DNA of 58,035 bases, counting the filler, from Sluysia triapertura (taxonomy: Eukaryota): assembly GCA_046118255.1 (NCBI GenBank). It is 4 parts of 4 records of this genome, joined end to end, with 100 filler letters (N's around TTAATTAATTAA, not from the genome) between each part and the next. Parts side by side here need not be neighbours in the genome. Positions count along the whole stretch, not along the records: positions 27,404 to 41,087 come from JBJNIA010025396.1; 3 more parts are not named here. The stretch is one strand, 5' to 3'. Made by a program: the position numbers and the translations under genes. This document shows, one piece after another, positions 7,051-54,470 of this stretch. A model generated the notes under the pieces. It had not been told where the DNA came from and searched no databases. It saw only the letters and a list, made by a program, of their open reading frames with translations. Every line of letters begins with the position of its first letter. The first letter of the stretch is position 1.

Positions 7051-7386
7051 TGCTTTATTATTTTTCAAATATATTAACCAAGAAACACAACCTTATTGAT
7101 AAAAGTATTATTTTTAATTAAAAATTTCAAAATACGTAACTACTCAGTGCATTATAATATATAATTATATTTTTACTAAAAGTAATAAATTGCTTGAAAA
7201 AATGACAAAAAATAATTCAGTGGTCAACATAATTCTGCATTGTTTCAATTTTAATAAACTCTTATTCGCAAAATGAAAACAATAAAATTTAATAATTTTA
7301 TGATCCTCCTTGTGTAATATTTAAAATAAATATAAAAATTCATTAATTGATAATTGATAAATTGTTGGATTAGTTATAAAATGATA

Positions 7387-8050
7387 ATGGGTTGCTGTAT
7401 TGGACGTTTAGCTTCATCAGTAATTTGTTGTTGTGCTAGTGCCACCTCAAGCATTTGTTATAAGTGCGGTGGTAATAATTGTATTTCATCAACAGTCACT
7501 CGACTCATTTATCTTATGATTTACCTAGTAATTTGCTCACTATCAATTTCATGTTTGCTTCGAGATTATAATGTAATATTACGAAAAATACCTTTATTAT
7601 GTAATTCAAACATAAGTGCAATATATCGTATTCATTTTTCTATGTTTGTATTTTTCATCATAATGTCAATGTTATTACTCCGAGTAAATTCGACATTTCG
7701 TAATAATATTCGTAATGCCTATTGGGTTACGAAATTTTCAATATTAATGTTGATAACAACACTATTATTTATTTTTATACCAAATGATTACTTTTCACCA
7801 ATTTTAACTATAATGAGTCAAATATGTGCAGTTGTATTTGTTATATTGGAATTAGTTTTATTGTTGGACACTATCAAATTTGAATGAGTTATGGTTTGAT
7901 TAATATACACTTTTGGTTTTATGTTATTGTTTGTCCATTATATTAGCAACAGTAACATTTATTTTGCACGGTATTAAAAAGATGCGTATATATTAGTAGT
8001 ATACTTTATGCATTATATTGAGTATAATGTCGATTTTATCAGCTCTAATT
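7387..8050 (+). pseudogene. SERINC: SERINC (serine incorporator/TDE) N-terminal fragment
   Basis: MGCCIG..ASSVICCC.SA...C, SSTVTRLIY, AIYRIHF, IRNAYWVTKF, LELVLLLD. Stop at 7885-7887, then a frameshifted remnant (LCIILSIMSIL) to ~8050; the C-terminal half is absent. Confidence 0.85.
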
Positions 8051-18910: not shown

Positions 18911-19848
18911 TGTTGAAAGTCGAGGCCGAAAACTATCAAATTAAAAGTTAATAACTAAATTCAAAATCTCGATATATTCGTTATATTATCACAAGATTAC
19001 AACTAGAATATAAATAAATTATTCTTTGTAACAATGACAATATAAATTACTATTTACAACAATGGCAATACGAATTACTCTTTATAAAAATATAAATTAT
19101 AATTTAAAGACAAATCACAACCAGGGGTGACACAACTTATTTAAATTTTATCACCCGTATTAATGCGAAATATTAACACTAAGAAAAATATTACTAACCA
19201 TTGTTCTAAAAAGAAAATGGTTTATTTTTATCAATTACTAAAGAAATAACTTTAGTTTCACGAATGAACTAAAGCTGTTTCCACAGAGTTGAAAAGTTAA
19301 TTCGATTTTTCTTTACTCCGGCTTTGCTTCCGTTTTAATTACAGAAATGCAACTGCTTATATAGCAATTAGTGAAATTAAAAATCAGAAATCGAACAAGT
19401 CGGAAATTAAAGCTGTCGATTTTCTTTTAGTTGCGGCAATAAGCCGACTAATTTCGCCGATTAAATTTCCGTCTGTGTTTAACATCATTCCAATTATCTA
19501 AAGATAATGGGATTTGTGGCAAACAATCCCCTTATCTTCTTAATATCACCTAATTAAAATTTAAAATCATTGTTACATTGCTTTTATAATAATAACGCAA
19601 TTGGTCAACTTAATTTATCAATAAAAATAATTAAATAATAAATTTATTTCTCACAGGAGTATTCTGCATTAATACGTTGTGCGTCAACCGCACGTTGCAC
19701 GTGAAGTTCAATAAAATATTTGAATTAGAATCTTTATAAGCATTAATTTGATATATACTTTATTAATACTTAGATATCGGAAAATATTTAACTTTAACTT
19801 TGAATTATAAAAATTAATTAAAATAACTAATTTTAAATTATTTTAACT
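18911..19848 (+). repeat. LTR-like repeat, copy 1
   Basis: High identity to 20036-20850 (e.g. TCAAAATCTCGATATATTCGTTATATTATCAC, GGCAATAAGCCGACTAAT, GATAATGGGATTTGTGG.AAACAATCCCCTTATC). Confidence 0.85.
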
Positions 19849-20035
19849 AAATTTTATGTTTAAAGGTTTTACTTTGATTACAAGGTTATTAGATACTTTA
19901 TAAACTTTATAATAGGCTCAAGATGTTTCATCTTCACCACTCTAACTCCATTTTCTACATTTTTAAGTTAATTATTAATGTATCAAATTTAATATCATTA
20001 ACCATGATTTTAAAACTTGAACATTTTAAAGGTTC

Positions 20036-20850
20036 TGTTGTGTCTTTTATTACTTTTATTTTCCCAGATTATTAAATTGGAACTCAACAACTAAATAAAC
20101 TCAAAATCTCGATATATTCGTTATATTATCACAAAACTACAACTAAAAGATATCTATTATAACAATACAAATTATTCTTTATAACAGTAAATTATTCTTT
20201 AAAGACAAATTATAACCAGGGGTGACACAACTTATTCAAACTTTAGCACCTATATCAATGCGAAATATAAACAGTAAGAAATATATCACTAAACCTTGTC
20301 CTAAAAAGAAAATAGATTATTTTAGTCAATTACTAAATAAATGACTTTGGTTTCACAGTTATCCACTGATGAACCAAAGCAGTGAAATTAGAAAATCAGA
20401 AATCGAACAAGACGGGAATTAAACCTTTCGGTTTTCTTTTAGTCGGCAATAAGCCGACTAATTTTGCCAATTAAATGTCGACAGCAATTTCGTCTTTGTT
20501 CAAATTTATTATCATTCCAATTATTTAAAGATAATGGGATTTGTGGAAAACAATCCCCTTATCTTCTTAATATCACCTAATTAAAATTTAAAATCATTGT
20601 TACATTGCTTTTATAATAACATAATTTGTCAATTTAATTTAACGATAAAATTAATGAAATAATAAATTTATTTCTCACATGAGTATTCCGCATTAATACA
20701 TTTGCGTCATTCGTACGTCAATAACATATTTGAATTGGTTTCTCTGTAAGCATTAATTTTATTATATACTTTATTAATACTGAGACATAGAAACATATTT
20801 AACTTTAATTTTAAATTATAAAAATTAATTAAAATAACTAATTTTAACAT
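20036..20850 (+). repeat. LTR-like repeat, copy 2 (starts TGTTGTGTC)
   Basis: Direct duplicate of copy 1. The shared start is confirmed by the inverted copy 3. Confidence 0.85.
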
Positions 20851-21584
20851 TATTTACGTTGGCGTGCTTCGCAATACTTAAAAAATTAATAAAACTCAAT
20901 ATTATACACTAAATCCAATATCGTTATATCATGAGCAAACATTTTTATTGAGTTCTCAAATTAAACAATTGTACTTTAATATTTTAACAAATAAAACCTC
21001 TTAATGGGTTATTGCTTTGTATTTCTCATTATTTTATATGCTTATCCTACCATTGCAGTTCATCATAATGCCTCATCTTAATTCTTTAACAATGTTGAAC
21101 TTATCCTTGATCTTTACCCTTACATCTATCCTTATCTTTCACCAATCACATCTATCATATTTTCCTAAATAGAGTGGTCAATCTTAAATCGACTGTATAA
21201 AGCTACTAAAATAAAATGAAAATAATATCAACGTAATTAAGACTCTCATCATCTTCAAAATTAGCTAAATAATATAATTAGCAAGGGCATTATTCTCTTT
21301 GTAATATATTTTAGTAATAATATGATAATAATAATAATAAATCAAATATTAATTTAATAATAATTCAAAAATACATAATGATGATAACACATAATAATAT
21401 TTTATGTCTAGGCTTAGAAGCCTTTTTGATTAAAATTGTTTAAAAAATATTTTCTGATTAGATAAAATATGAATTATGACGAAAAATAATTGATTATGGA
21501 TGACAGAATACTGCTAATGGAATTATAGTGCTGTTTTTTTACTTAACTCAAAATTTAATTTAATGAAAGTGCACGTGTTTTCTT

Positions 21585-21695: not shown

Positions 21696-22217
21696 TGTTA
21701 AGAGTTTTCTTTTGATTATTTCTTTATTACAATTTCCTCTTTAAAAGAGAGATTAACTATGTAGGATTATATTGGATTTAGTTTTATATATATTAACTTC
21801 TTTATCTCCTGCCATTCTATAAATTACTTATTTAAATTACTCCTTAAACTTATTAATTAATGACTTAAACCTCTTTGTTTAATCTTAACTAAATTATTGA
21901 TTATTGAATACATTATTCTTTCTTAATCCGTCAACAATCATTCTTTTTCTTTTGCAACTTTATTTTACTTTGTTAATTATCTTTTTATTTTATAAATTAA
22001 TAATCTAAATTCTTTGTTTAATGTTCGTTAACTATTCTTTAAACTTTTAATTAATTAATAATCTAAATTTTTTAGTGTTCGTTCACTATTTTTTAAACAG
22101 CAAAAGAAGTAGAAAATTCCAAAGGTATATTACCACAATCAAATAAATAAAAAATATACAATTCCAATTATAAAACCAATAATTAAGTATATAACGATAT
22201 TATATTTAATTAATAAA

Positions 22218-22887
22218 TTGTGTTATTGATAGAATAGCTATATAAAAATGATATTAAATTTTAATTTAATGGTGTTGAGAAGATAAGGGGATTGTTTACC
22301 ACAAATTCCACTATTTTTAGATAATTAAAAAGATAATGAAATTGGACACAGGTGGAAATTAATGATGGAATTTAATTATTAAAATTTGTAGGCTTATCAC
22401 AGTCTTATCCGTCTTGTACAGTTTCTATTTGTCAATCCCTCAAATGATTGTTAACCTACTACATAAGCTGTTATATTTTTGCAGAAAAAACAGAAAAAAA
22501 CAAGGAAAAATAAAGAAGAAACTGAAAAAATCTGTGGAAAACTTGGAAAACTGAGGATTATTCTTCAACAGAAAACTAAAATATATATTAGGGATGAGTA
22601 ATTTGTTTTTGTATTTATTATTTTTAGTTTTTAATATTGGCGTCAACATTTACTGATTTTATTTAAGTTGTGATTTTTTAATATTTGTAGATTTATAACT
22701 TTAAAGCTGATAGTAAATTTATATATTGAAGACATTTTATTAAAAGAAAAATTAGTTTAATTTATACAATATAAGTGTGTTATTATAAAATAATTTTCAT
22801 TTTAAAGGAATATATCGAGATTCCGAATTTGTTTAGTTAATGGGTTGTAATTTGATAATTTAAAATGAAAGCATCAAAGACACAATA
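22218..22887 (-). repeat. LTR-like repeat, copy 3 (inverted, more diverged)
   Basis: AGATAAGGGGATTGTTTACCACAAATTCC and TATATCGAGATT are reverse complements of copy 1/2 motifs. Confidence 0.75.
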
Positions 22888-31693: not shown

Positions 31694-32524
31694 TGTAAGG
31701 TTGTAAATTAATATTTTAATTTATTTGTAAAAGTTGTAAAATTATCTATATTTTATTATTTATATTTTATTTTGTATTTTATGTTTTATGTAAAAATTGT
31801 GAAATTTATAAACATTAAAATTAAAAATATTTTTTAAAATTATAAAAATTATTATTTAAAATATTACAAATAATATTATATCAAAAATTATAAATCAAAT
31901 TTAATTATTTTAAATATAAAGAAAAAAGAAAACACCAGAAAAGTTTGTTTTAATTAACTAAACTTTTAATATGGTTTCTAACAGTATAAAAAGATAGTAA
32001 CAATCACAAGTAACAGACAAGTTAACACAAGAATCACCATCTTTGATCAAACAAATAAAGTACAAAGAAGTTATACACTTGATTTTTCACAAATATAATT
32101 TATGATACAAAGCCCCGGCTATACAAACTAAGTAATTAAAATATCACATTGATTCTACGATATCTACGAGAATAATAATCAAATTTTTTATTCCATCAAT
32201 TCCAATTTATGTTATAAAGTAATATTAAGTTAAAATATTTACTTAAAATACTTGATTTTCAGTTGGTCATTAAGGCCAATTATAAAATATTACTAAAATC
32301 TAAAATCATCATCTTTTCGTTGGTCCGTAAGGCCAATTATAAAATATAAATCCATTTGATCGAATCTTTGGGCTAGGCCAACTTATTTAAAATCATTCAT
32401 TATTATTATTGCTTATATTATTGTCTTGATAACTTGGAATTTATATATTTTGTTTTCTTTTTAACGAATTTCTATAATTTTAACGTTGTGATTTATTAAG
32501 GTTTAACGTAAAAGTTACAATACA
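31694..32524 (+). mobile_element. Solo LTR with 4-bp target-site duplication
   Basis: TGTAAG...ATACA termini flanked by AATC on both sides (31690-31693 and 32525-32528). Internal TATAAA; homologous to 24.7-25.4 kb. Confidence 0.7.
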
Positions 32525-32759
32525 AATCTATTACCAACATTAAACTACGAAAAACTTAAAGATACATTATTTTAGTAGTAAAGATACGTTGGTTACCATC
32601 ATTTAATGTGTGAACTAAAATAATCTTAACTTATTTTTTGACAATAGTGTTCGTGAATTAGACTTCGTTATAGTAATATTTAACAAATAATTGAATTTTA
32701 AAGACATTAGAGAAGCACGTTATTGCACGGATATCTTTACCGTTATTCTTAGACGTATT

Positions 32760-32845
32760 TTCACGTTACTTACAGATACACCACTGATAAGTCGTATACT
32801 GTAGGCGGACTCTAGATATTAATTTACTTTGCTGTTAGGTAAGTT
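32760..32845 (+). repeat. Dispersed hairpin repeat (copy F)
   Basis: CTTACAG(32769)/CTGTAGG(32799) stem, then CGGACTC, then AATTTACTTTGCTGTTAGGT. Confidence 0.7.
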
Positions 32846-33039
32846 TTAGAGTCAAAAGAAAACAGAAATACAGCATATCAAACAGAGCAGAAAATTTATT
32901 ATATTTTAGTAAAATACTTGAGGAACATCTAAACAGCAAGATTCAATAACAAATTTTCAACAATTATTTCGCCATCGTTTAAGAAAAGGTTAAATTAGAT
33001 AATTAATTTTATAGTGCTAAATCTATATATAACTCATTA

Positions 33040-33320
33040 CATTACTGAAATAGAAATAACGTTGCTTTTTTCTTAAATATTTCATAATATTCTCTTAGTT
33101 GTATATTTTTGAATCATAAACCATATACAACCTGGAACCTATCTTATTATCATTGCGGTTTCTGTATAAATTGTCATATTTTAAAGATTTTCATTTTAGT
33201 TTCCAAATTTTTTTTATTTCCAAGAGATATTCAGGACTTCCATAACGTAAAAATTAATGTCATGATTTTAAAATCTACTTTGCTTTCTTTCAGATTCAAA
33301 CTTAACTAATTCGATAATGG
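33040..33320 (-). mobile_element. LINE ORF2 C-terminal fragment, second copy
   Basis: Shares GTCATGATTTT..A.TCTACT and TTTCTTAAATATTTCATAAT with the 23.5 kb copy; reads VDFKIMT...GSPEYLLE. Confidence 0.65.
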
Positions 33321-34424
33321 TAATAGAATCTTTGCTATTTTCAATACTTTATTCTTTACTCGTCATTTACTACAACATATGCTATTTACTGAAAATTATG
33401 CTCAAAATTTTTAGAATTAAAACTTTACATATTATGTTTGGATTATAAAAGTAGTACAATATATTATTTAATATGTAATCTAAGTGATTTAAAATATTGT
33501 GAAGTTATGATCATAATAATAATTGAAATATTAATCGAAATAATATAATTTCAAATGGTGATAATAAATTCTAGGCGTAACCTCATGTTTACGTGTAAAA
33601 TATATTATTTATTTTTAGGGCAACACGCCCATATTGAAAACTAAATGTAAAAATAATACAAAGAGATTAAAGAGCTCGGATATTAAAATGAATTGTTTAA
33701 AAATTGCTTTTAAATTATTGTGTTTTTTCAGTCACTTCAGAGTGTAATTGTTGTGGCGGTTCAACTCATAAGGCCTCATTTCACTACTTACACACCACAT
33801 AATAAATCTATAACTCACAACAAATCTAACAAATCTAGTTTTAACCACACATTCTTAGAATAATCCTTTCTACATTCAATATCTCACAACCTTTACAAGC
33901 ACAGCGTCATTCAATGAAAAATTTCAATTTCAAACTATTCAACAGATCATCTAAAGACTCAAACATATTAAATTCAACTCATCTCTACATGTTTTTAGAT
34001 CATCAAATGATACCATTTTACTCAATACATTCACCAAATTCAAAACAAATGAGATTAAACTTAAAATCCAAAAGCTATACACAAAATGATTCAACAATGA
34101 AACAAAACACCTTTTAATCCATGAAACATTCAGCAAAACTGCGAATCTTAATCATATTCAGAGATCATCAGAGTTCTTTAGCCTTTCGAATCTTAATTTA
34201 CATTATCCAAATAAAATTTTATAGTTTTAAAGCATACACTATTATTTTCTAACTATAAGGCGAAATTTTAACGAAAATATTACTAGAAACTAAGAACTCA
34301 TTCAAACTTTTATAATGTGTAAAATCATAAAGTATATATAGCTATTTGCAAAGCAGAATTATCATCTGATAAAAGAGTTCGTTGAGTACATTCAAACATT
34401 TACACAATCTAAATAAGAATAAGA

Positions 34425-34427
34425 ATG

Positions 34428-34485
<58 letters not shown>
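34425..34485. repeat. (AAT)n microsatellite
   Basis: Direct inspection. Confidence 0.95.
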
Positions 34486-34559
34486 GTTAGTTTATTATGA
34501 ACCGGTTACGTAATAACGAATAGTTACTCTACGTCTAAACTCAATTATTGCATTATTAA

Positions 34560-35760
34560 CTCATTCGAATGATTACAGTTCAGTTAAAGCAGGAATTTAT
34601 GTCACATTTTATTGGTACAAATGTTGGATCAATTATTGGATCAGCGTATTTTAATCGTAACGATATAACACAGTTAGTAGACATGTATGATTACAAAAAT
34701 AAAAATTTTTAAAAAGAAAAATATGAATGACATTGAGTGACTTATTTTATGACCAATAGGTGCTCATTTAAATTGTTCATTTAATTCAAAGACGTCTTCT
34801 AATGTTGAAATATTAGCAGATGATCTAGCTAATACAGTTAAACTTTCATGATAATCAATCAAAACACGTGTTAAGCGATTACAGTACGTCAGAATTGCCA
34901 AATTATGGTTTATCGAATAAAGTGAACTCTAAAGGCAATAAAGGCGATGATACATTTCCCGAAACTATACCATGTAATTATCAAAAGGTTAAAATTCCTT
35001 CAAATCAAACAGAACAAATTATTCGTTCACGTTTGGAATCGATTGTAAATTAAAAAATACCACTACTTGAGGGTTATCAATAGTTAATTCATGTTATCCA
35101 TTGATTACTTTTGTTCCAATCAACAAATTATAGAACCAACATCTTCATTTCCATTAGAACCTGCTGAAATGGATACAGAGATACAAGGTATTAGCTATTC
35201 TAAGTAAGGAAGATAGAATTTACAAGACAATTAGAATTTAGAATTTGCAAGAAAATTATTAAGGAAAGATGACAAAAAGAAAGAAAAGATAATCCTAAAG
35301 AATTAATGACAATAAGTATAATTAATAATGCCCTGAATATTGCCATGGAACTTCCAGAAACTTCAATTGCAAAAGATATTATAGAATTACTTAAGTCAAA
35401 AGATTCTGCTAAACTCAAGTTGACTTATATATTTATGATAGAAAAATATTACCTAATGATTATATAAATGATTACGGTTATCCATCAATGAATGGAAACC
35501 ATGAGGAAGCATCAATGACTTCGCAGTTATAATGGCATATACTAAGCCTTCAGATGATTTACGAAAATAAGATGAATTAATAAACGATGATAAAGATATT
35601 GATTTAGATAGAACCCCACGTTCATTATTAAGAGAATTAATGGAAGATAATTATAATGATAATAATAATAAAGTTATAGACATTACTAATGATAATGATG
35701 ATTACACTGAAGAAAAACCTGACTACATAATAGACTTAAACAAAAATCAATAATAATCAA
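34560..35760 (+). mobile_element. Decayed relative of the gag-env element (gag remnant plus acidic linker)
   Basis: Gag-like VKQEFMSHFIG near 34585. Linker motifs LAILS..RKLLRK, LPNDYINDYGYP and EEKPDYIIDLNKNQ match LVILS..RKLLKK, IPTDFLNDYGYP and LEEPDYIVDLNKNP at 43.4-44.0 kb. Confidence 0.7.
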
Positions 35761-35959
35761 TAAATTGTTAATATATTATTTAGTCTATACACATATAATT
35801 GAAATCACAATATTATTTAGTCTGTTTATACACAACATAAAGTTCAAAGTCACCTACAATGAACATTGATTTACAATATCGACACTCTTAATTTGACAAT
35901 AACTGTTTCGCTACGAAAATCAAATAATATGTAATAATTTTTTATAAAATGAGTTAGAT

Positions 35960-36240
35960 ATGTTAATGTAAAATGTTAACTTTTGTCTTTTTATTTAAAT
36001 CTATATCAAATTCAAATGTCTGGATATTATTTTATATTCTAAAAAGTCCTTACTCTGTATTATTAATTCAAATCTCTTTATAAAATTTAAAGTTAAACTT
36101 TAATTAACATTATCACTTTATATTAAACTTAACTGGATCAGTATACTCGTCCTTGCTGTTCAGGATAGAAGTGCTTAATAATTTATTAATAATAGTTATA
36201 CGGTTATATCTTAATCATTATTCAACTATAATATTTTACA
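35960..36240 (+). repeat. Dispersed repeat (LTR-like); inverted copy at 54190-54470
   Basis: ATACTCGTCCT.GCTGTTCAGGATAGAAGTGCTT..TAATTTATTAATAATAGTTATACGGTTATA is shared in reverse complement. Confidence 0.8.
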
Positions 36241-37251: not shown

Positions 37252-38266
37252 CTATTTGGAATCGGCAATTAATTGTTGTTTAATGGCATCCGGAATTCGA
37301 TGCAAATAATCATCTATCCATCCAGAATTTGCAGTTGCCAGTACGCCTAATTTATTTGCATGATTGACATCAACATCATACTTTAATTTATTGCCACATA
37401 AATCTCTCAAATCACCACCAGATTCTGTTAAAATAGCTTCCGGTGCACAAGTATCCCATTTTTTACATCCTCGACTTGCAAACACATATGCATGACAACG
37501 ACCTTCAAGCAAAAGTAAAACTTTATGTCCACAACCACCAACTCGTATTATCTGTTAAATTTTTTATAATTTAAAATTAAATTACTTCTGTTGGTTTACA
37601 ATTATTCAAAGCTTCTTGAACTAATGACGTTGAATGACCACGTGTAGTAGTCATTATATTACAAGTTTCGTTTGGTGGATGCTGAGCTTCTTTAAAACGT
37701 TTACTTATATTGAATACACCCATTCCTCGCAATGCATAAACAGATCGACCTTCAGAATGATTAAATGGTGAATAAGGTTGATGTATGACGCCCCCAATTG
37801 CTTCTCCATTAACGGCTAAGCCAATTAAAACTGTAACATGATCCAAAAGACCCTATATTTTATAAATTATCAGAAATATGTTAAAACTTACTTGTGTATA
37901 TTCAGTGGTTCCATCTAATGGATCTACCCATACTACTACATCACTGAGTTTAATATTTTTAAGTGCGTCAGGGCAAGTAAAACTCAAAATACTATTATCA
38001 TCGGATAAATCAACTTCATTATTTTTGTTTAACCACTCATCAGACAAACTTTCTTCTCCAATTACAATAATACCTGGAAATTTTTTTTTCAATGAATTAA
38101 CAATGCAAGCTTGAGCTTTCCTATCTGCAAGTGTTTGCAAATCATTTATTCCTTTATCAACAATTCCTAGATTTCCACTAGACATAACCTGTCTAATTAT
38201 TGATCCTGCAGCATATGATATTTTTACAGATGATGATAATAACCTTAATATTAAAGGTCGATCCAT
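37252..38266 (-). CDS. BPNT1: 3'(2'),5'-bisphosphate nucleotidase 1; exons 38266-37892, 37852-37586, 37551-37252
   Basis: Motifs DLQTLADR, IGEE, VVWVDPLDGT.EYTQ|GLLDHVTVLIG, TTRGH, RVGGCGHKV, GCKKWDTCAPEAIL. GT-AG introns of 39 and 34 nt restore one open frame. Confidence 0.95.
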
Positions 38267-39729
38267 TTTATTTTCTATAATATAAAATAGTTAAAATATA
38301 AATTATACTTGAGCACTAACAACATTAAATAAAATCAAATGATATTACAAACCAGATAAAGTCATGACACCTACGCATTAATAAATATAAAAATGTATAA
38401 AATCTATATCAACTTTTGAATATAAAATTTTAAGGACAGTAAATTTTAAATAAAACTTTAAGTTGTTAAAACTATAAATTGAATTAAAATATATATCAAA
38501 TAACAATTAAGTAATGTTAATTTTAAAGTGCAAGCTAAAATTTTAGTTTTATTTCGTTTAAGTGTTATATTACTATTATGCATTTACATGTTTAAATTAC
38601 TGACATAAATTACACTTTAAATTGTTAACAAATAAATGTTTTTATTGCATTTTTTGAAAGTATAAATGAATCGTGTATTACTTTTTTTTATTAAAATAAG
38701 ACAGTAATTTTGCGTTATAGTTATGAGAATAAATTTTATTTCACCAAAATCATTATAACTACTCAAAATTAAAAAGCACTTTAAAGGAAGCCATGTTAAA
38801 AGTTGATAAAATAAATCAAAGATTTCAACTATAAATAACACAAAAGCATAATCAATATTAATTTATAAAAATCTTTCAAAATTTTATAAATAAGTAGATT
38901 TTGCTTTGTTATTTGAGCGTTAATAATAATGCCATTAAAATTAATAAATATGCATAACTGCAATAATTAAAAGTGAAAATACTCAGATAATAAAGCAACC
39001 AATTTTTGAAGCAAATTATATGTTGCCGGAAAACTATTTTAATATATAAATATAAACAAGAAATTATTATTTCAAATAATAATTTGCATAGTTTTAAAGT
39101 GGTGTTGCAAAATTTCTAATAGTAAAATTTCTCTTAAATTTGTGTATTTCCTGTATTAAAATTTTTGCTCAATTAATAATTATAATTTAAGACAAAAATA
39201 TTATAAAGTTATAAGTCCTACAGACAAAAATTACTATACATTTATTAATTACTTATGCATACTTGGAAATGAAATTCTTTAAATTTATTTGTTTTAATCA
39301 TGCAAGTTAATAAATAAATATTTCATGACGAAAATATTATTTCTTTATTCATATTTTTTAAAAATAATTTGGTATGTCTTTTAAATACAGTTATTTCTCG
39401 ATTAATTATACTTGCAATTTTGTGCAATAATCTGAACTCAAATATATAAACTAATATGAAAAGGAAATCAGTTTTTCTGAATTTCGTGTCTGAAAAGGTA
39501 AGGCGATTCTAAAATGAAAGAAAATAAGTACAAAATAAATTTCAATAAATAAATTCCATTATAATTTTTGAAGTTCAACTTATTTCGAAAGATGATTGTT
39601 TATTGTAAGATACAAGTATTATTTTAACTAGATTTCTAAAATAGATTCTGTCATCAAAACATTTTTATTTGCAAACCAAATAGCGTTAAGATATTTTTTA
39701 TTATATATCTTAATAGTTTTATATTTGTA

Positions 39730-41087
39730 TTTAGTTGACTAACACAGGCTTCAGACTGAATTCATGTTTAGTGTGTCTCAGTGAGTTGTTTGAACACTTC
39801 ACGACCGAGTTCGGGTGCTTCATTCTTTACTGAATAGATTTTAATAGCATTCCATTTCTTCGATGTTAAAGTTTGTTTAGGGTGTTTTCGAATTTAGGTA
39901 ATGATGCTAAATTATTATTATTTCTATTTGAAAATAACAATTTTAAAATCCCTAATATTATTTCTTTGTTTAGGTATATTATCGGTTTGAACCTAAAATA
40001 GCTATGAGATAATACTTTAATTTGACTTATTGAATTGTAAATTCTAACTCTTATTATTAGGTTACTGAGGGCAACATAAATTATCATATCTTTTTTGTTT
40101 CGAAAATTTTTGTCTTTATATAAACATTTATTAATTAAAGATTTATTGAACACAGAAACTAGTATTTATTGACATGTTATAAATTTTAAAAAGATCGTTA
40201 CTAAATTTTGGAATTACATGAACAATTCTATTATTTATCAATATCCTTCGCACTGCACCTGGAACATAATTTGATAATAAAGTCTGGTGTAGAGAATTCT
40301 TCATGATGTTCTGTAGGAATTTTTCAAACATAAATCCGCTTTTGACTGAATAGATTCTATTGATGTTGAGACATTTAGTTATTGGATAAATCTGCGACTC
40401 AATTTTGGATATCATTGCTATCGTATTTAAATGAGATACGTTGACGAGATTATTCTTATGATGAGACAAAAAATTCGAATTATCCGGTTCATTATTTTCT
40501 ATTTCTTCGCGAAAAATTAATTTGGAATCCCATCTCACACGGATTCTAATTGAAAACTCAAGTAAATCCCGTACAATTTTGGCATGATCATGATTAAAAG
40601 GCATAATAACTTCAGGTATTACTTCAAATAGCTCTAATAATTGAACGATGTATTTCGTAATTCTAAATAAATTATTGGGAATTTCGGATAAACAATCCGG
40701 TTGACATCTTCGATTTATCCGTGAATAATGATATCTTAGCGAGACCCACGGTGATTCATAAAGCCAAATATCGTTTAGCTTTAGTTCATTTTGTATTTGG
40801 ATTGATGAAGTATCATATACGTCTCATACATATTCTAGGATTGGTGAATTTAAATAAACTGTCACCTCTTGACACGGTTTAACCATTCTGTCCTCTTTAT
40901 ATTCTAAACACGGTTTCAGTTTAATGTTGAATCTAGACTCAGAGCTTACTATATTTACTGAATTGTTATCTCTTATATGAGCTTTTTCGATTTCTTCAAA
41001 AGTTACTTTTACTTGACAAGAAACATTACTTTGAACAGATGTTGGTAAAATTAACTGACATAAAGGTAAATTTGTAAAAGAGCTTTT
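39730..41087 (-). pseudogene. Unknown ~450 aa coding region downstream of env
   Basis: One frame runs from the gap edge (KSSFTNLPLCQLILPT...) with a single stop into ORF 40143-40604, then frameshifts into ORF 39866-40153 and beyond. No recognisable motif. Confidence 0.65.
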
Positions 41088-41187
41088 NNNNNNNNNNNNN
41101 NNNNNNNNNNNNNNNNNNNNNNNNNNNNNNNTTAATTAATTAANNNNNNNNNNNNNNNNNNNNNNNNNNNNNNNNNNNNNNNNNNNN
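41088..41187. other. Assembly gap with artificial linker (interrupts env after its TM helix)
   Basis: N-run with TTAATTAATTAA at 41132-41143. Confidence 0.95.
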
Positions 41188-42873
41188 ATATTATTAACGC
41201 TATTACTTTAATAATTATGTAAATACCAATTAATCCTGAGAAAGCTTGACCTAAAATTAGAAAATTACGCCAAATATGTTTTAATGTATTTTGTGCAGCT
41301 TTCTTGAAGTGATCCTGACCTAACAATAATTCGAAATTTATTCTTTTGTCTTTTTCTATTGTTGCTAACTTTGATCTTTTTATAGGGAACAATATTTCTC
41401 GCCATGCTGCTTGTATATTTTCATTTGTATACATATCTGAGTGAGGTATATTTTTCGTTGCCAAGAATTTCAATTTTCCCTTTAACTCTGTTAATCCTAT
41501 AATTTCTGGTACCTTAACTTGTGTTCTGTGTGGTAATGAAATCCATAAATTTTCATCTATTCTGTACTCCGGAGCCATTACATTCGAGCAATGCATCACC
41601 TTTGGTTTAATTTTATCACTAGGAAATATTACCCTTGTTACTGGTTCTAGACAAGTCTCTATTTTTCCGTATATTATTGGTAATTCATTTGTGCATTCAG
41701 TTGCTGGTCTTAGTTGGACTTCTACTTTCTTGCATTTGTAAGTGTATAACACTTCTCCCATTAATCTGCCAAATACACCTTCTTCTAATGGTAATAATGG
41801 TGCAACCAAATCAGGATTTGTTATGGCCACTGCTAGTTTTATGCGTAATATTTCTTTATTCAGTTGGCAGTCTCGAGCGATCATAATTTGATAAATTTGA
41901 TAAATCTATTCCCTTTTTGGCTTGTAATATTGTTTTCTCAGATAAGTAAATGCCTTGGTAATTAGTTTCTATGACTTATTTTCCGCATCTTATTATTGTT
42001 CCTTTTGATATGAAAATCAATCCGTCTTCTTCTCTACTGGCCATCATAATGGTAGGAGTTTCTATTTGCTCTAATGTTTTATGTTGTACTCGTTCCTTTT
42101 TATTTATTTCTTCAATTGGTAAATCATCATTATTCTGATAAACAAATCAGGATACTAAATTAAATTTTATTTGTTTTAAAAATATTAAAGGACACTTATC
42201 TAATTCGTATTAGAATGGATTCACCTGTATCGCAACTTGTTTGATCCATTCTACAAAATGATCTAGACATCATTGTTCCTTTTTCAATATCAAAACTTTC
42301 ATTGAAAGATTTCAAACTTACTACAAAAGTTTCTTGAGCTACAACATTGTGATATATTTTTCCTTCGTATTCTATAGATCCTTGTTCGCACGTTCCATCT
42401 GTTAATACATTTCCCGCAGTTCTAATGTTGTAGATAATTTTCTCATTATTTCTTACTCTTAGTTTGTCTCCTTTGACTAATCCTATGTATCCAGTTTCGA
42501 AAGCATCTCTACAATTATTCGGTAAAATTCTAAATGGTTTTAATACGTGTGGTAACTCTATTATCGATGAATGACTATGATGACCACAATACCATATTGC
42601 CACTGATCTTTTAACCATACATTCTCTAACCAGGGCTCTTATTAGATTTCCTTCTTGGTATACGCTGAAGACTTTAGTTTCTTTTATCTGATTTCTAGAT
42701 TCCGGGCAGTCTTCTGTATCCAATAATGAAAATTTTCTGCCAACTTGTGGTTGATTACATTCAAACGCCTTTATTGCACCAGATTTATTTATACTGAACA
42801 TAGCCAACAATATTATTAAGAAAAACGTATTGTTCGTTGAGTTTCTTAATCGTGGTATAGCTGTATTTGACAT
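41188..42873 (-). pseudogene. env: Envelope glycoprotein related to Chuviridae/jingchuviral G (class III fusion-protein lineage), disrupted
   Basis: Signal peptide FFLIILLAMF, then AFEC..(K)FSLLDTEDC, ECMVKRS..IWYCGHHSH, DGTCEQG, CDTGE, RCG..VIETN, DC.LNK......A.TNPD......G.FGRLMGEVLYTYKC..VEV.LR...ECTNELP, C....P.Y and a C-terminal TM GQAFSGLIGIYIIIK. Cysteine spacing matches chuviral glycoproteins. Contains frameshifts, stops and an internal deletion. Confidence 0.85.
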
Positions 42874-42943
42874 AATATGTTTCCGAATAAGTTTGTAAAT
42901 AAACTTGATGTTTCTTCGAATTTTTGATTCTCTTTTCCTTTAA

Positions 42944-44406
42944 TTATATTTCTCCATTCTCCTTGTTCTTCAGTCCATAACTTTGTTTTCTTATTAACGA
43001 ATTCTTATCCTTATTACATTGAAACAAGGTATACGCTAAAATTATTTTAAACCTTTCTCTATTTATCCCCTTACTAAGTTGTTTATTAATAATTGATTTA
43101 TATTGCCCATTTTCTATGAAATCGCTAACATCTTTTTCCATATATTTTTCTTCTAATTGTTTTATAAGTTTTACTATCGTATTTTTATAGTCCTTTAGTT
43201 TAGGTAACAATTTTTTATACTTACTGAAGTTTGTAAATGTATTAGATAAAAACGCATAAACTATGTTTTTGTATCCAATTCTAATAATTCTTCTGCATTT
43301 TCATCTAATATCTTTGTCAAATCTATAATAGTTCTTTTAACGGGATTAGTCGTTATTAGTACACCTTCTTCATTTTTTCTTGACCGACTGGGCCGTCTTT
43401 TAATTGTATTTGTTTTCGTGTCACTCATTTCAATACGTGGATTTTTATTAAGGTCCACTATATAATCAGGTTCTTCTAATGTGCCATTGTTTTTAGCTAT
43501 TTCATTATCGTTATTTTTTGTCATTTCATTACCATTTTCATCCATTGATTGTCTTAAGAATGACTGGGCATTTTCATTTACTTCATCCTCTGATATATAT
43601 ATTTTCAAATAAATTTTCGTATTCGACAATTTTATTAGTTTTATTAACAGCCTTTATTATTTTCTCGTGGTTTTCTAATGGATAACCATAATCGTTAAGA
43701 AAATCTGTCGGTATTAAATATCTATTAAATGTCTACATTCAAAATTGATGGGTTATTCGATTTTATTATGTTAATAATATCTTGAACCAAAGAGATTACA
43801 ATAATTCCATGAAAATATTGATAAGTCCATTTAGTGAGATGTTAATTTTCATTGACATTAGTGGATCTATTTTTCTTTCCATTAACGCATTCTTTTTTAA
43901 TAATTTTCTTGTTTTATATTGGTGAGGATTGTTAGCTTCGCTTAATATAACCAAACTCGGTTTGATGCTCTGCGCATTGAACATGTTAAGTCTAGATTCA
44001 AAATTTTATCCAAGTTTCTATCGATATCATCATCATTTTCTAATTTTGTAAGGAACGCCTTTGTTTTTTCAATCAATGATGGTTCGGGAGTGTCTATTTT
44101 TCTCTGGTTATCACGGTCAACTATTTGTTCTTCCTCTTCATTACCTAATATAATCATTGAATCTAAATCCTCAATTATATCATTAATTAAATCATCTTCA
44201 TTAATTGATTCCTCCGTTTGGGTGGTTAATTCTTCTTCGTTTATTATATTATTATCTTTTTCCCATCTACTAATAATTGCTTCGACCTTTTTCTTTTCTT
44301 CTATTTCCTGTGGGGTTAGTTTCTGTTGTTCCTTTACTACTTTCACTATTTTCTTTTTATCCTCATTTTCAAATTTTCCGAAAAAAGTAATTAATGAATG
44401 TTTCAT
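42944..44406 (-). pseudogene. Acidic/charged linker coding region between gag and env (unknown function)
   Basis: Abutting or overlapping ORFs 43942-44406, 43796-43984, 43261-43629 and 42944-43210. Glu/Asp/Asn-rich, with no DTG/DSG, YxDD or DDE motifs. Confidence 0.6.
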
Positions 44407-45693
44407 ATTCGTCTTCTTGTTCTATCTTTGTTTTTCTCCTTTCTTCATACATATCCATACTATCTAGCTTTGCTCTACGAAACTCGCGCAATATTTCTTC
44501 TTCTTCTTCATCTGTTAGTCTTCTTTGATATTTTTCATTACCAAAATCTCCGTAATCTTCATCGTAATTGCAATTGATTTGTCCTTTGTCTTCAAATTTT
44601 ACTCTTCTTGGAGAGTTTTGTCTGTTTTTATTAAAGTTTTGTTTGAAAGTTTCGGATTTCAATTTGTTGCAATTGCGAGCATAGTGTCTTGATTTATTAC
44701 AATGATGGCATATTAATTCTCCCTCAGTATTAGTTCTTGTTTTGTAATTGTTATAATTTGACCGGGATGGACTTTTGTTTCTATCGAAATTATTTCTTTG
44801 TCCATCTGGGAGACAGTCGTTGCTCGTAATCTCTGGAACCATTGTTCGAATAACTTCTGGCGAATCCTCTTTTAGTACTTCTTGCATTTTTATAATTTCT
44901 GTCTGAATTTTGATAACCTTTGCTTGAATTATGGTAATTTTTTCCTTGATTCTAATAATTATTCCTTGAATTATAGCTATTTAAACTTCTTTATTTTCAT
45001 GAGATTTATTTGTTTCAAAATCACTATCTTCGAAGTAATCTCTAGGTTTATTTTTAGGTGATTCACTTCTTAGACTAACAGTCTTAACCTTATCTATATA
45101 ATTTATATTACCTTTTCTTTGTCGTGATTTTTCGGTTTCTTTTTGTGATCTTTCAATACCCTTTAAAGTCTTTACTACTTCCTTAAACGGTTTATTATCT
45201 ATTAAACTTACAAATACTTGCAATTCTGGTCTTAAATCATTATTAAGTTTATCTATTAACATTGCTTCTTTCTTATCATTAGGTATTTTGGCTCTTACTA
45301 CTAAACATTTTAACGCGCATGCGAATTCGTAAACAGTTTCATCTTCTCTTTGTTTACTAGTATTTAACATTCTAAGATGATATTTACCTATGTCATCTAA
45401 AGCAATTTCTTCTGTTAATGCATTTAAAAATGTAGTTCAATCTTGTTTTTCTCTGTTTCAATTTCTTTGTATGTTTGAATAGCGATGCCTGTCAAGTAAT
45501 TTTGGATTCTTTTAATTTTATCTATTTCTGACCAGCCGTTGACCTCTGCAACGCAGTCATATTCATAAAGAAAATTACATAATTCTTCTTCATTTCCACT
45601 AAACTTACACATTTCTGGGAGAATAACTGCGGCTTTCATATTTACTGATAAATGCTTAATACAATCTCTTAAATCTTCTAATATTTGCTCCAT
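44369..45693 (-). pseudogene. gag: Gypsy-type Gag with CCHC zinc knuckle, frameshifted
   Basis: KFSGNEEEL..FL..YD..AE.NGWS...K...I..YL.G.A (capsid N-domain), KQREDETVYEFA..L..L (major-homology-like region), L.PELQ and CHHCNKSRHYARNC (C-x2-C-x4-H-x4-C). Confidence 0.9.
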
Positions 45694-45881
45694 ATTTGAT
45701 TTATTTTGCTTAGTTTTTCTAATTTTACTTATTTTAATATTTTGTTAAGAATTAACTCTGCGTAATCCGATTCTATTTTCCTTATCGTATAGATCAATCC
45801 TTAAAACTACAAAGATCCAACAATAAAATGAAATTCAACTAACTTAGTTTACTTAAAACTTATATTCAATGCTTCAAAGTG

Positions 45882-45899
45882 GTCCCAATTCGGGCGCCA
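45882..45899 (-). promoter_or_regulatory. Primer-binding site complementary to tRNA-Lys 3' end
   Basis: Minus strand TGGCGCCCGAATTGGGAC versus the canonical tRNA-Lys(UUU) PBS TGGCGCCCGAACAGGGAC (16/18), located 6 nt from the LTR end. Confidence 0.85.
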
Positions 45900-48841: not shown

Positions 48842-49199
48842 TTATTTATTTTTATCCCATTCTTTCAAACCATCTGGTAAAGTTGTATCTTCTTCCATTG
48901 ATCCTGTCTCTTTCACAATATCTTCATAAGTCATTTTTTCACCAAATGGACGTTTTCCTAAAATTAGTTCGAGATCTTCTCGTTCCAATGTTTCCTTTTC
49001 AAGCAATTTTAAGGCCAATTTCGACACCAATTCTTTCTTTTCTGTCAACAATTTCATTGTTCGCTCGTATGCTTCATCAACAATTTGTTTGGCTTCTTCA
49101 TCAATCAGTCGAGACGTTTTTTCTGAAAAAAGTTTCACTGTTCCTTCTTTGAAACTCAAATACTGAGTTGTTTTACTTAGACCCATTTGTTTTATCTGA

Positions 49200-49261
<62 letters not shown>

Positions 49262-50763
49262 CATTGTTATTATCACTATTGGTGTTTAAATTACAAAATA
49301 TGTGCAGTCTCATTTTCTTTTGCAATTGAAAAATGTTCTTTTCCTCGAACAGTACATTAAATTAGTTGTCATCTCATATTGTTCATTCAAAATGCCTTTA
49401 GTTGTAATTGGCGTGCAATAAATATATTTTTTTATCACAGAAATTTTGAAAATACATTTTTTGCATTTTCAAAATTACAATGAAATCATAAAATAATTTT
49501 CCACTCTTAAAATGTCATTCATTTTAAAATAAAATTATAGCAAAAAGTGCATTTAAAAATATCTTAAATATTTCAAAATAAACATTTTAAAAAGCCTAAA
49601 AACAAATAAAGAACTTAAAGACTAGATTCGAATTTGCCACAGTGAATAGATTAAAGTACTAACGGTAATATCGAAAGAATAGGCATAAGTAAATTAATTG
49701 ACCAAATAAATTACCCACATTGTCAGGATAATTATAGAAAGAATTAGTTATAGAACAGTTAACCATTATTATTGTAACATAATGCGGGACAGAGAACGCC
49801 CAATGTGAAAGAAGCTCAGGTAAAATTTACCTATGACAACTGATTCTGATGAATGCACATGAATACAGTTTAGTACACAGAAACACACGAATAAGATATA
49901 ATTGAATATTACAATATTCATATGATATTATGAATTATCTAATTTGGCACATTTTTCGTTACATATAAATGCGGAACATGAGGCTTTTTAATCTGGGACA
50001 AATTGCAAAGTTCCTCAATAACAAAATATTGATAGATAATGCAATAAATGGCAGTTCTTTCTATAGAGAAAACATAACACAAATTGTATAAATAATGTGT
50101 GATTAAGTTTATTCTTATTTGACTATACTTACCAATTCTATTAATTTATTAATTTATTCTGTAAATTATCACTGGAATTATTCTTACCAACTATTTATGC
50201 AATATGAAAAATCAACATAAGCTCTTTTACCAGAAGCAGAGCAGAAGGAAATAAAAATGGAATAAGTAAAAGTATTAATTTGTATTCTCATTCAATAATT
50301 ATAATTTAAACGATTCTTAGTTTTAGAAGTATTTTCAACCTATGAAAAGCTATTTTTAAGTTAAAAAATTTGAAATAATTATCCAGGTTTAATTTAAAAT
50401 TTGTAGTTACTTCGAATTTTTTTAAATACACTCATAATAACCTACTTGATGATAAGCCATATCAGTAACCTTCTGTAGATCATCAAGAGCTCCAGAACTG
50501 TAACATTGAAAAAACATCCATTCTGATACTCGTCCCCCTAGTACCATACAAATTCGATCAATGAAAAACTGTTTATTAGTAATCCAAACATCACGAGGTT
50601 GATACAATGCAAAACCTAAAGCTTCACCGCGCGGAATAATACTTACTTTCATTAAAGGATCACAATGTTCCAAAAACCAACCAACCACAGCATGACCGGC
50701 TTCATGATGTGCAATAGTGTTTTTTTCTTTTGAACTTATTACTTTCTTACGCTCCATTCCAAC
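48842..50763 (-). CDS. AFG3L2: m-AAA protease AFG3-like protein 2, last two exons (50763-50446, 49195-48842); 5' exons outside the window
   Basis: HEAGH zinc motif, KVSIIPRG..LG.A.Y.P, LGGRVSE, SSGA.DDL.KVT and C-terminal LG.RPF.EK.TYE....TGS..EDT.LP.GLK.W. Canonical CAG|...|GTAGG and TTCAG| junctions are in frame. Confidence 0.92.
49199..49280. repeat. (ATT)n microsatellite directly at the AFG3L2 3' splice site
   Basis: Direct inspection. Reads (AAT)n-TTCAG on the transcript strand. Confidence 0.95.
49560..49900 (+). mobile_element. Possible Penelope-like 3' remnant with degenerate hammerhead core
   Basis: FKINILK...RFE....RLK-like GIY-YIG tail, followed by CTGATGA(49846)...GAAAC(49880). 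Confidence 0.3.
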
Positions 50764-50882
50764 CTGAAATTGTAAAATAATATTTGTAATTTTTACTTTT
50801 AAAATCGCTTTTACATCATGAGTAAGAATTGAAATTTAATTTATTATTTTAAGTTAAATTAATGCATTAATACCGGAAATGA

Positions 50883-51390
50883 ATCACATAAAAACATTTC
50901 TTACATACACAGAACACTAAATAAACTACTTAACTCATTCAAAAAACAAACCTAGTCATTGTACATAATTGTCATGAACTATAGTCATAATATATAATTA
51001 TTATGATTATTGTTATTATTGTCGCTATTATTATTGTTATCATAATTATTGCTACCATTATTGTCATTATAATAATCACAACAACAATCACCATGATCAC
51101 AGGTACATGTTAAAACAACGATGTTGATGATGTTATATTATAAGAATTATTATGACAACTGGATTTAAAATAACAATGACTATAACTCGTGATAATTATA
51201 TACAGTGGCTATGTTGATGATGTTATTATATGATAATCATATTATATAACAATAATCATAATAAATATTATATATTTTAATACGATAACTATAGTTCATG
51301 ACAATTATGTACAATGACTAGGTTTGTTTTTTGAATGAGTCAAGTAGTTTATTTAGTGTTCTGTGTATGTAATAAATGTTTTTATGTGAT
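50883..51390. repeat. Foldback/MITE-like long inverted repeat in the AFG3L2 intron
   Basis: Arms 50883-50985 and 51288-51390 are near-perfect reverse complements and extend inward through ATT-rich/AAT-rich sequence. Confidence 0.9.
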
Positions 51391-52687: not shown

Positions 52688-54189
52688 AGTAATAATGTGT
52701 ATATTTAAAAATATTTTGAAATATATAATACATTGTAGATTTCTCGTATTTACTATTCACGCAGAAACGTTGGCATTAATGAAAATGTTTGTCATACTTT
52801 CAGTAATAAGTAACTAGTTTCAAATAATTTATCTATTCAGTAGCAATCAATAAAATTATTAAAAGAATTGTTCGATGCATGGGAATAATCGTTTACATAT
52901 TGTGTAAATTAAAAATTACGTATATTGATATATAGCATAAATCACGGATCATAATCGCGTTTGTCAATCTGAACCAGTAATGCATATGAAAATATCAGCA
53001 AATAAATATAAACATGCACTTCAAGTTAATATCAGATAAATCAAGCTGCCACTAAACTGTATCATATTATTATTATTATTGTAACCATAGTTTTCACTTA
53101 TTTAAAATTTTCTAAACATAGTATTTCATTTTCACATTCATTTATTTATCATTAAAAATAATATTTAATTTCATTTAAAATATTATTATTATTTCATTTA
53201 ATTTCAAATTCATTTCAAAAAAATTTTAATTGTAATTAAAATAATAAAAAATCATTTAAAATAAATTAATCAAAATCATTTTAAAAAATTTAATATAAAG
53301 GACAATACATATCATCTATTATTATATTATTATTTTATAATGTAAAAATTATCATTAGTATTATTGTTATTGTTATTATTATTATTTTAGAATGTAAAAA
53401 TTATTATTAGTATTGTTGTTATTATTATCATAAACAATACATGTAATACCAACACTCATTTACATTATGCATAGAATTAGATAGTGAAATAAATATTTCG
53501 AATTTAATTCGTACCTTATAATGTATAACTATTCTAAATACTATTAATGTTACTAATTAATTATCATTGTTAATTATTGTACATATTAGTAAAAGTCATT
53601 ATTATTGATAAATATCATTTATTGGTTTAATTTAAATTGTATAGAACTGATTACAATTTTGAACACATTTATTTAATTTCATTATTATTGATATTATTTT
53701 AATACGTTTATAATTTTTCGAATTGGTATAAAAGGAAATAAAAATATGCAAATAAATACAGTTTTTTTAAGTATCTAAGAAATAGAGAACGATTCGATTT
53801 GCAGTTATCTTACTCATTCTATTTATAAACTGGATCATTCGACTTGCAGTTGTACCAAGATATTATATCATCCTAACAATTCAATTTATTAATTGATCAG
53901 GTGATTCAATTTGGCAATTCAAGTGATCTTATTGCCTTTTATAATTTTTAATAACGATAAATAAAATGGTGTATATTATAACATTTTACATATATACTTG
54001 TTTTGTATTAATTGATCAATAAATTAATTAAATTGTTGTTTTATTTTTAATTAGTTACTTTGCCTTTTTGAGAGTGGGGCCCTAAAAAAGAAGGAAGAAA
54101 TATATAAGGTATATCAGTCAAGACAATAATAATAAATGGTAGTGATAAACGTAGAATTAAACAATTATAATAAGAAACTTAAACATTTA

Positions 54190-54470
54190 TATTACAGTCG
54201 AGTATAGATTAGAGTATAACCGTATAACTATTATTAATAAATTACCAAGCACTTCTATCCTGAACAGCGAGGACGAGTATAATAATTCATACCTCCAGTT
54301 AAAACTAATATAAAGTGATAATATTAATTGAAGTTCAGAATAACTATAAATTTTATAAAAGATTTGAATTAATAATATAGAGCAAGAATTTTTAGAGTAT
54401 AAAATAATATCCAGACTTATTTGAATTTGACATAGATTTAAAGCAAAAAGATGACGCATAAGATTTTTAA
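54190..54470 (-). repeat. Inverted copy of the 35960-36240 repeat
   Basis: AAGCACTTCTATCCTGAACAGCGAGGACGAGTAT and AAAATAATATCCAGAC are reverse complements of the 36 kb block. Confidence 0.8.

Follow-up and report, generated by a model that had tools for sequence, protein, structure and literature searches.

A truncated spacer fragment from a gag-env-pol family of Ty3/gypsy elements in Sluysia triapertura

The linker fragment and its surroundings

The window, that is the whole stretch of 58,035 nucleotides of Sluysia triapertura DNA that was analysed, is divided by three N runs, and carries on two different contigs a sequence that lies between gag and env in a family of Ty3/gypsy elements, called hereafter linker or spacer. 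One copy belongs to a main element on the − strand (41189–45899), described in the next section, and the other is a fragment on the + strand at 35188–35748. Exons of host genes were also recognised: Serinc (7354–7887, + strand), the inositol monophosphatase family (37252–38290, − strand) and an AFG3/paraplegin-like M41 peptidase (48842–50835, − strand). Repeats in the window include a direct duplication of about 1 kb (19093–20856 and 22201–22351, 86–97% identity) with a third, inverted copy, a small dispersed repeat present in inverted orientation at 35986–36234 and 54189–54451 (83% identity), and a MITE-like structure at 50883–51390, in which 270 nt separate the two arms of a 119-nt inverted repeat.

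The fragment is an internal piece of spacer of subfamily B (one of two subfamilies defined below), broken in its frame and cut on both sides. It starts with the end of a helical region (35191–35261) carrying the motifs LAILS (35191–35205) and RKLL (35250–35261), continues with a predicted ubiquitin/SUMO-like domain spread over two frames (35285–35526; profile A3, 34 and 43 bits) that includes NDYGYP (35467–35484), and ends with an acidic stretch up to PDYIIDLNKN (35718–35747). The helices around LAILS and RKLL were seen in a low-confidence model of an open relative, and the fold evidence for the ubiquitin-like domain was likewise taken from open relatives. This domain is whole in the fragment, and the Bcl-2-like domain of the spacer lies beyond its end. 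The same order of motifs was found in the main element, as LVILS, RKLL, NDYGYP and PDYIVDLNKN on the − strand at 43954–43441. Six-frame translation of the window gave two occurrences each of NDYGYP and PDYIxDLNKN, against none in 30 shuffles. At the DNA level, fragment and main element shared 67% identity over 521 aligned columns (score 367, the best of 200 shuffles reaching 268). The original prediction, made from the sequence of the window, was right on these points: it had described three linker motifs collinear with those of the main element, here placed at 35191–35747 on the + strand, in a strongly diverged nucleotide sequence.

Both ends of the fragment are sharp. When compared to 29 subfamily-B loci, it showed 81–89% DNA identity (median 84%) in 30 alignments, of which 21 started at 35188–35190, two at 35167 and seven later; none extended beyond 35752, so that homology to the family ends directly after PDYIIDLNKN. 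The subfamily-B relatives run on as spacer at both ends of the equivalent segment. A genome search with the DNA of 34490–36000, in which 40 of 719 candidates were scored, gave non-self matches confined to approximately 35170–35750. The fragment consists of four frame segments, with stops and frame changes relative to its open relatives, and profile and query searches of its contig detected neither env nor pol downstream. It is therefore a dead scrap, truncated on two sides, which presumably does nothing now. Most of an old subfamily-B insertion was probably deleted, or else an internal piece of it was captured.

Upstream of the fragment, gag-like sequence had been proposed near 34.6 kb, which would have made the fragment a second copy of the gag-to-linker junction. 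Profiles were built from 46 capsid and 44 zinc-knuckle sequences of both subfamilies (14 and 9 of them from B). On 34490–35187 the capsid profile scored −0.8 bits and the knuckle profile 0.1 bits, values that base shuffling equalled or exceeded in 68 and 55 of 200 cases, respectively, compared with 173 and 152 bits on the gag of the main element. Their maximum over 32000–35187 was 1.8 bits, and no CCHC motif was present on the + strand within 32000–35200. In tblastn, four natural gag frames drawn from the two subfamilies gave no match at 34.6 kb, and the frame 34560–34799 (+ strand), with its stops read as X, matched only itself in the genome. Gag at this place was therefore rejected. The first part of the supposed gag stretch, 34560–34756, is unassigned single-copy DNA. 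From there to the fragment, 34757–35182 (+ strand) derives from a low-copy sequence unrelated to the family, whose Q/N-rich frame is decayed; this piece abuts the fragment and has DNA matches of 74–85% to three other loci (L081–L083). A genome search for this low-copy sequence returned seven matches among ten candidates, on a handful of contigs, and no Pfam family was found for its Q/N-rich frame. Since there is no gag at 34.6 kb, and family homology begins only at 35188–35190 in most alignments, the second copy has no gag-to-linker junction and is not an independent witness of it.

The main element and the gene order of its family

The main element, of subfamily A, has a primer-binding-site-like sequence at 45882–45899. 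It was the sole such match in the window, and 18 of 100 shuffles also yielded one; the same site occurs before gag, at a distance of about 200–300 nt, in other copies. Gag follows at 44570–45693, recognised by profiles and motif, with a capsid in two frames (45161–45693) and one CCHC knuckle (44669–44710). The Pfam families zf-CCHC and Retrotrans_gag were matched in its relatives, and a gag with both capsid and knuckle is found in the family as in the main copy, and is absent beside the fragment. The spacer contains a broken ubiquitin-like domain (43631–43873; profile A3, 56 bits) and, directly before env, a Bcl-2-like domain in two frames (42930–43279), located by profile mapping. Env itself is broken (41189–42873) and encodes a fusion glycoprotein of the mononegavirus/gB type (PF24664, E 8e-29 and 8e-42). 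It continues up to the contig end at 41188, where it is cut in its membrane region, and a run of N occupies 41088–41187.

Queries for pol gave no match in the whole window, and the segment 38500–41087, compared to all family loci, matched none of them, so that neither pol nor the 3′ end of the element was found across the gap. In the family loci, the median gap between the membrane region of env and the protease is 319 nt, which places the expected protease start some 0.3 kb beyond the end of the contig. Because env meets the contig end this short of the expected protease, a lack of pol in the main copy cannot be read from the present assembly.

On the far side of the gap, 39866–41087 (− strand) is a different multi-copy repeat with a decayed frame (103 matches, 76–88% DNA identity). 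One of its relatives has the start of a dynamin-family GTPase (PF00350, E 4e-9); it is perhaps a captured host gene inside another mobile element.

The gene order of the family was determined across the genome. The linker is present in high copy number, with at least 152 matches (150 of 1,313 candidates were scored). From 150 plus 40 linker matches, 113 contigs were picked for long open frames or downstream room, hence a non-random sample, and their long stretches were domain-mapped. DNA scores split these loci into 83 of subfamily A, that of the main element, and 30 of subfamily B, that of the fragment. Pol was never found upstream of the linker on the same strand (0 of 113 loci), and gag was present in 51 of the 61 loci having 2 kb upstream. 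Downstream of the linker, pol was found in 33 loci, always with env in between. Where 3 kb or more were available, in 56 loci, env was present in 42 and pol in 32 (for subfamily B, pol in 6 of 18). Wherever env was complete to its end, pol came next in 22 of 23 loci (19 of 20 for A, three of three for B), so pol was not absent from most complete copies. The 24 loci with room and no pol (12 of the 18 in B) broke off at many scattered points, 23 of them before the end of env. Gag, env and pol were found together in 18 loci (16 A, two B). In both subfamilies pol lies about 2.5 kb behind the linker, the first protease starting at a median distance of 2,470 nt. The order gag, spacer, env, pol is thus that of the family, in both subfamilies. 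Beside one truncated subfamily-B copy, an open frame of 1,448 residues with no clear Pfam family was noticed on the opposite strand (L060:977–5320).

Hence one half of the proposal that the pol-less layout is heritable stood: the succession of gag and linker, with no pol intervening, is supported as a trait of the family. The other half fell, since pol is present behind env in both subfamilies. The prediction had itself named two findings that would refute it, a 34.6 kb segment that is not gag and other linker-bearing copies that usually have pol adjacent, upstream or downstream of the linker, and both were made. Very probably, then, the fragment at 35188–35748 is the dead remnant of a Ty3/gypsy element from a family ordered gag, spacer, env, pol. 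As in the Burro elements discussed below, the spacer of this family likely comprises two domains, one ubiquitin-like and the other Bcl-2-like.

Within a gag-env-pol family, the main element at 41.2–45.9 kb might itself be non-autonomous, its pol having been deleted. Truncated copies are common, and the repeat found across the gap makes an interruption or a cut at that place possible. This we consider rather doubtful, because env reaches the last base of its contig, the size of the gap is not fixed, and only one of the 23 comparable loci lacks pol.

A further question is whether gag, env and pol form one reading frame, or lie in separate frames, so that frameshift, readthrough or splicing would be needed to express pol or env. 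Nine junctions, from capsid to the second protease (see below), were inspected for copies that are in frame and free of stops, which gave successively 10/37, 6/38, 14/50, 46/91, 42/95, 6/67, 4/25, 3/19 and 2/10. Each junction was therefore open in 2 to 46 copies, although no single contig contained the whole element, and for subfamily B three of the nine were seen open. At the long junctions frame 0 was only the plurality, or tied (env to protease 10/25, Bcl-2-like domain to env 28/67, integrase to second protease 3/10). Such frame offsets in many copies would suit separate frames, but offsets of +1 and +2 were of similar frequency, as expected from decay, every junction was open in at least two copies, and a single frame is given for the Burro element in PMC6431247; separate frames are accordingly unlikely.

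Homologues were searched with an open frame running from the linker end into env, which gave 209 matches among 1.84 billion representatives. Twelve of these were scanned: eight had env followed by a protease or a whole pol in one protein, and in three env was preceded by a match to a gag knuckle or to a capsid family. Judging from these frames, a single polyprotein from gag to pol is likely. Its size can be estimated at about 3,100–3,300 residues, as a sum of spacings taken from different copies. The same lineage includes an env-pol polyprotein labelled as a Flavobacteriaceae MAG protein (HBK71150.1); animal DNA was probably binned there with bacterial sequence.

Two other readings bear on the fragment rather than on the frames. 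The 560-base piece and the Q/N-rich sequence could together be a chimeric, once functional gene that had acquired a ubiquitin-like domain, in keeping with the whole domain in the piece, its sharp 5′ end and the adjoining frame remnant on the same strand; this is very improbable, as both halves have stops and frame changes, the junction is present in none of the three other low-copy loci, and no intact version was found. Least credible of all is a heritable pol-less gag-linker(-env) family, mobilised in trans and represented by a second gag-bearing copy at 34.6 kb: the window has no pol, no locus has pol between gag and linker, and 24 of 56 loci with room lack it, but there is no gag at 34.6 kb, full-env loci nearly always have pol in both subfamilies, the pol-lacking ones end at many different points, and the main copy stops at a contig end. 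Non-autonomous LTR derivatives without pol, such as LARD/TRIM-type and gag-only elements, do exist. The window taken alone resembles them in having gag without pol; the family differs in having pol, and the parts missing from individual copies end at scattered points. Had the first reading held, the family would be a heritable enveloped element devoid of pol; it does not hold, and the fragment is unremarkable debris of a gag-env-pol family.

Conservation and predicted domains of the spacer

Selection on the linker was estimated by pairwise Nei-Gojobori comparison. Median dN/dS of the linker core was 0.22 within A, 0.35 within B and 0.40–0.41 between A and B, compared with 0.07–0.31 for capsid, env, RT and integrase, these medians being taken over non-independent pairs, with saturated pairs dropped (for example, 52 of 110 A–B pairs in RT), and mixing selection on active lineages with later decay. 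Amino-acid identity between A and B was 38% for the linker versus 54–77% for the same four proteins. The linker is coding and under purifying selection, which agrees with the earlier suggestion that it is conserved at the protein level, yet it is the least conserved part of the element.

The stretch bearing NDYGYP is likely a ubiquitin-like domain, as predicted from a model of open relatives. The core of the model is confident (pLDDT 92–95) and has the order strand-strand-helix-strand, the last strand of the fold being absent from the model. Four concordant tests, each weak individually, lead to this reading. In Foldseek, 48 of the 49 matches listed were ubiquitin-fold chains as judged by title and length, with a best E of 0.05 in a PDB that is rich in ubiquitin; VIA gave a best Z of 5.0 (rmsd 3.2, 66 aligned); PF11976 was matched in four of 35 members (best E 0.005); and the best PDB matches of the sequence profile were ubiquitin variants (E 0.26).

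For the helical domain directly before env, sequence profiles point to a likely Bcl-2-like domain. A 22-row profile (A2), of which eight rows are distant homologues selected partly by a W..GGW motif, matched Bcl-xL in the PDB with an E of 2.3e-5, and the best 60 of 108 matches were all of the Bcl-2 family. A single sequence from the genome itself gave E 0.007 with Pfam and 0.33 with the PDB, and Pfam Bcl-2 was matched below the cut-off in eight of 15 proteins.

The spacer as a whole gave a poor model (pLDDT 43.6), whose fold searches returned no E below 0.001 and a best Z of 5.7, and nothing was found with a whole-spacer profile in the PDB. A word-seeded search for linker homologues found none among 1,702 and 5,692 candidates; with the linker profile, a single distant protein was recovered from the env-bearing matches. 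After PDYIxDLNKN comes a basic GRP motif that we take to resemble an AT-hook (Pfam E 8, in one homologue).

Relation to known elements, and the two proteases

A natural frame of 1,661 residues contains, according to Pfam, the C-terminus of env, protease, RT, RNase H, integrase and a second protease, and the order protease, RT, RNase H, integrase was found in other loci as well. The RT is of the Ty3/gypsy type, its best PDB match being the Ty3 RT (E 1e-89; the next, 4e-53). Between protease and RT, a spacer of a size suitable for a dUTPase exists, and a single-sequence PDB search gave no dUTPase.

This arrangement is close to that published for the planarian Burro/GYPSM1 elements, with a Gag bearing CCHC knuckles, a Ubi2/SUMO-like domain (PF11976), a BCL-2-like domain and a mononegavirus-like Env followed by PR-RT-RH-IN, env being in frame between gag and pol within a single frame (PMC6431247, where Jurka 2007 and Grohme 2018 are cited for these elements). 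The order Gag, ubiquitin/SUMO-like, Bcl-2-like, Env, Pol is common to both, including the position of the first domain between gag and BCL-2, with weak individual scores here, and that of the second directly before env; the likeness is to the published description of Burro. In contrast to the description in PMC6431247, the present family has an estimated length well short of the 4,873–5,140 residues of Burro, a single CCHC knuckle instead of two or three, and no MATH, BIR or ankyrin cargo in Pfam scans of its open frames. As the giant ORF of about 5,000 residues and its cargo are not found, it is a compact relative and not Burro proper.

GAG-ENV-POL errantiviruses with an env of the HSV/gB type are also known from Platyhelminthes, Nematoda and Bryozoa, and include Smed_errantivirus_1–6 (PMC13524379). 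They share with the present family a Ty3/gypsy pol, a gB-type env (PF24664) and its place before pol, as seen here in all pol-bearing loci. The pattern of cysteines and motifs in env resembles, by eye, that of the six Smed rows in supplement 2 of that paper. Those elements were selected as intact, whereas the copies observed here are decayed, and Bcl, ubiquitin and SUMO do not occur in the main text of PMC13524379. By its likeness to these and to the Burro elements, the host is probably a planarian or a relation of planarians. The Gag-SUMO-like-Bcl-2-Env-Pol plan is already published, and the present family is a further, compact example of it. With two old subfamilies, and purifying selection on the cargo, it supports the published, untested idea that such elements act on host apoptosis and ubiquitination.

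Such an element may have worked as follows. Transcription would start from an LTR, a tRNA would prime at the site before gag, and one polyprotein would be made. The signal peptide of env could serve as an internal signal, leaving Gag and spacer in the cytosol and Env in the ER lumen; past the membrane anchor, protease, RT, RNase H and integrase would be back in the cytosol. Signal peptidase and the protease or proteases of the element would then process the polyprotein and release Pol. The Bcl-2-like domain would be held at the membrane, likely damping host cell death, and the ubiquitin-like domain may act as a docking module for the host ubiquitin/SUMO machinery.

Of 18 loci with integrase, 10 (seven A, three B; for instance L026:2402–7384) have the second aspartic protease 95–160 nt further on, and it is 32% identical to the first. 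Distant homologues have two to four protease stretches instead. A protease in this position is not mentioned in the Burro section of PMC6431247, and a thin search of the literature found no report of one. We tentatively propose that the family combines a minimal Burro plan, with only the ubiquitin-like and Bcl-2-like cargo, with an undescribed, catalytically complete second aspartic protease that became fixed downstream of integrase in the two old subfamilies alike. Two diverged proteases might then cut one membrane-threaded polyprotein, and a C-terminal extension would be released by the second of them.

Paired LTRs were not seen within any one locus, contigs being short, and the window contains no tRNA gene. 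A primer-binding site starting with TGG is conserved about 190–340 nt before the capsid match in 16 loci of both subfamilies. The primer-binding-site-like sequences before gag differ between A and B, which suggests a switch of the priming tRNA. Finally, a 100-base match was detected between the flank preceding this site in two copies and the flank following pol in a third.
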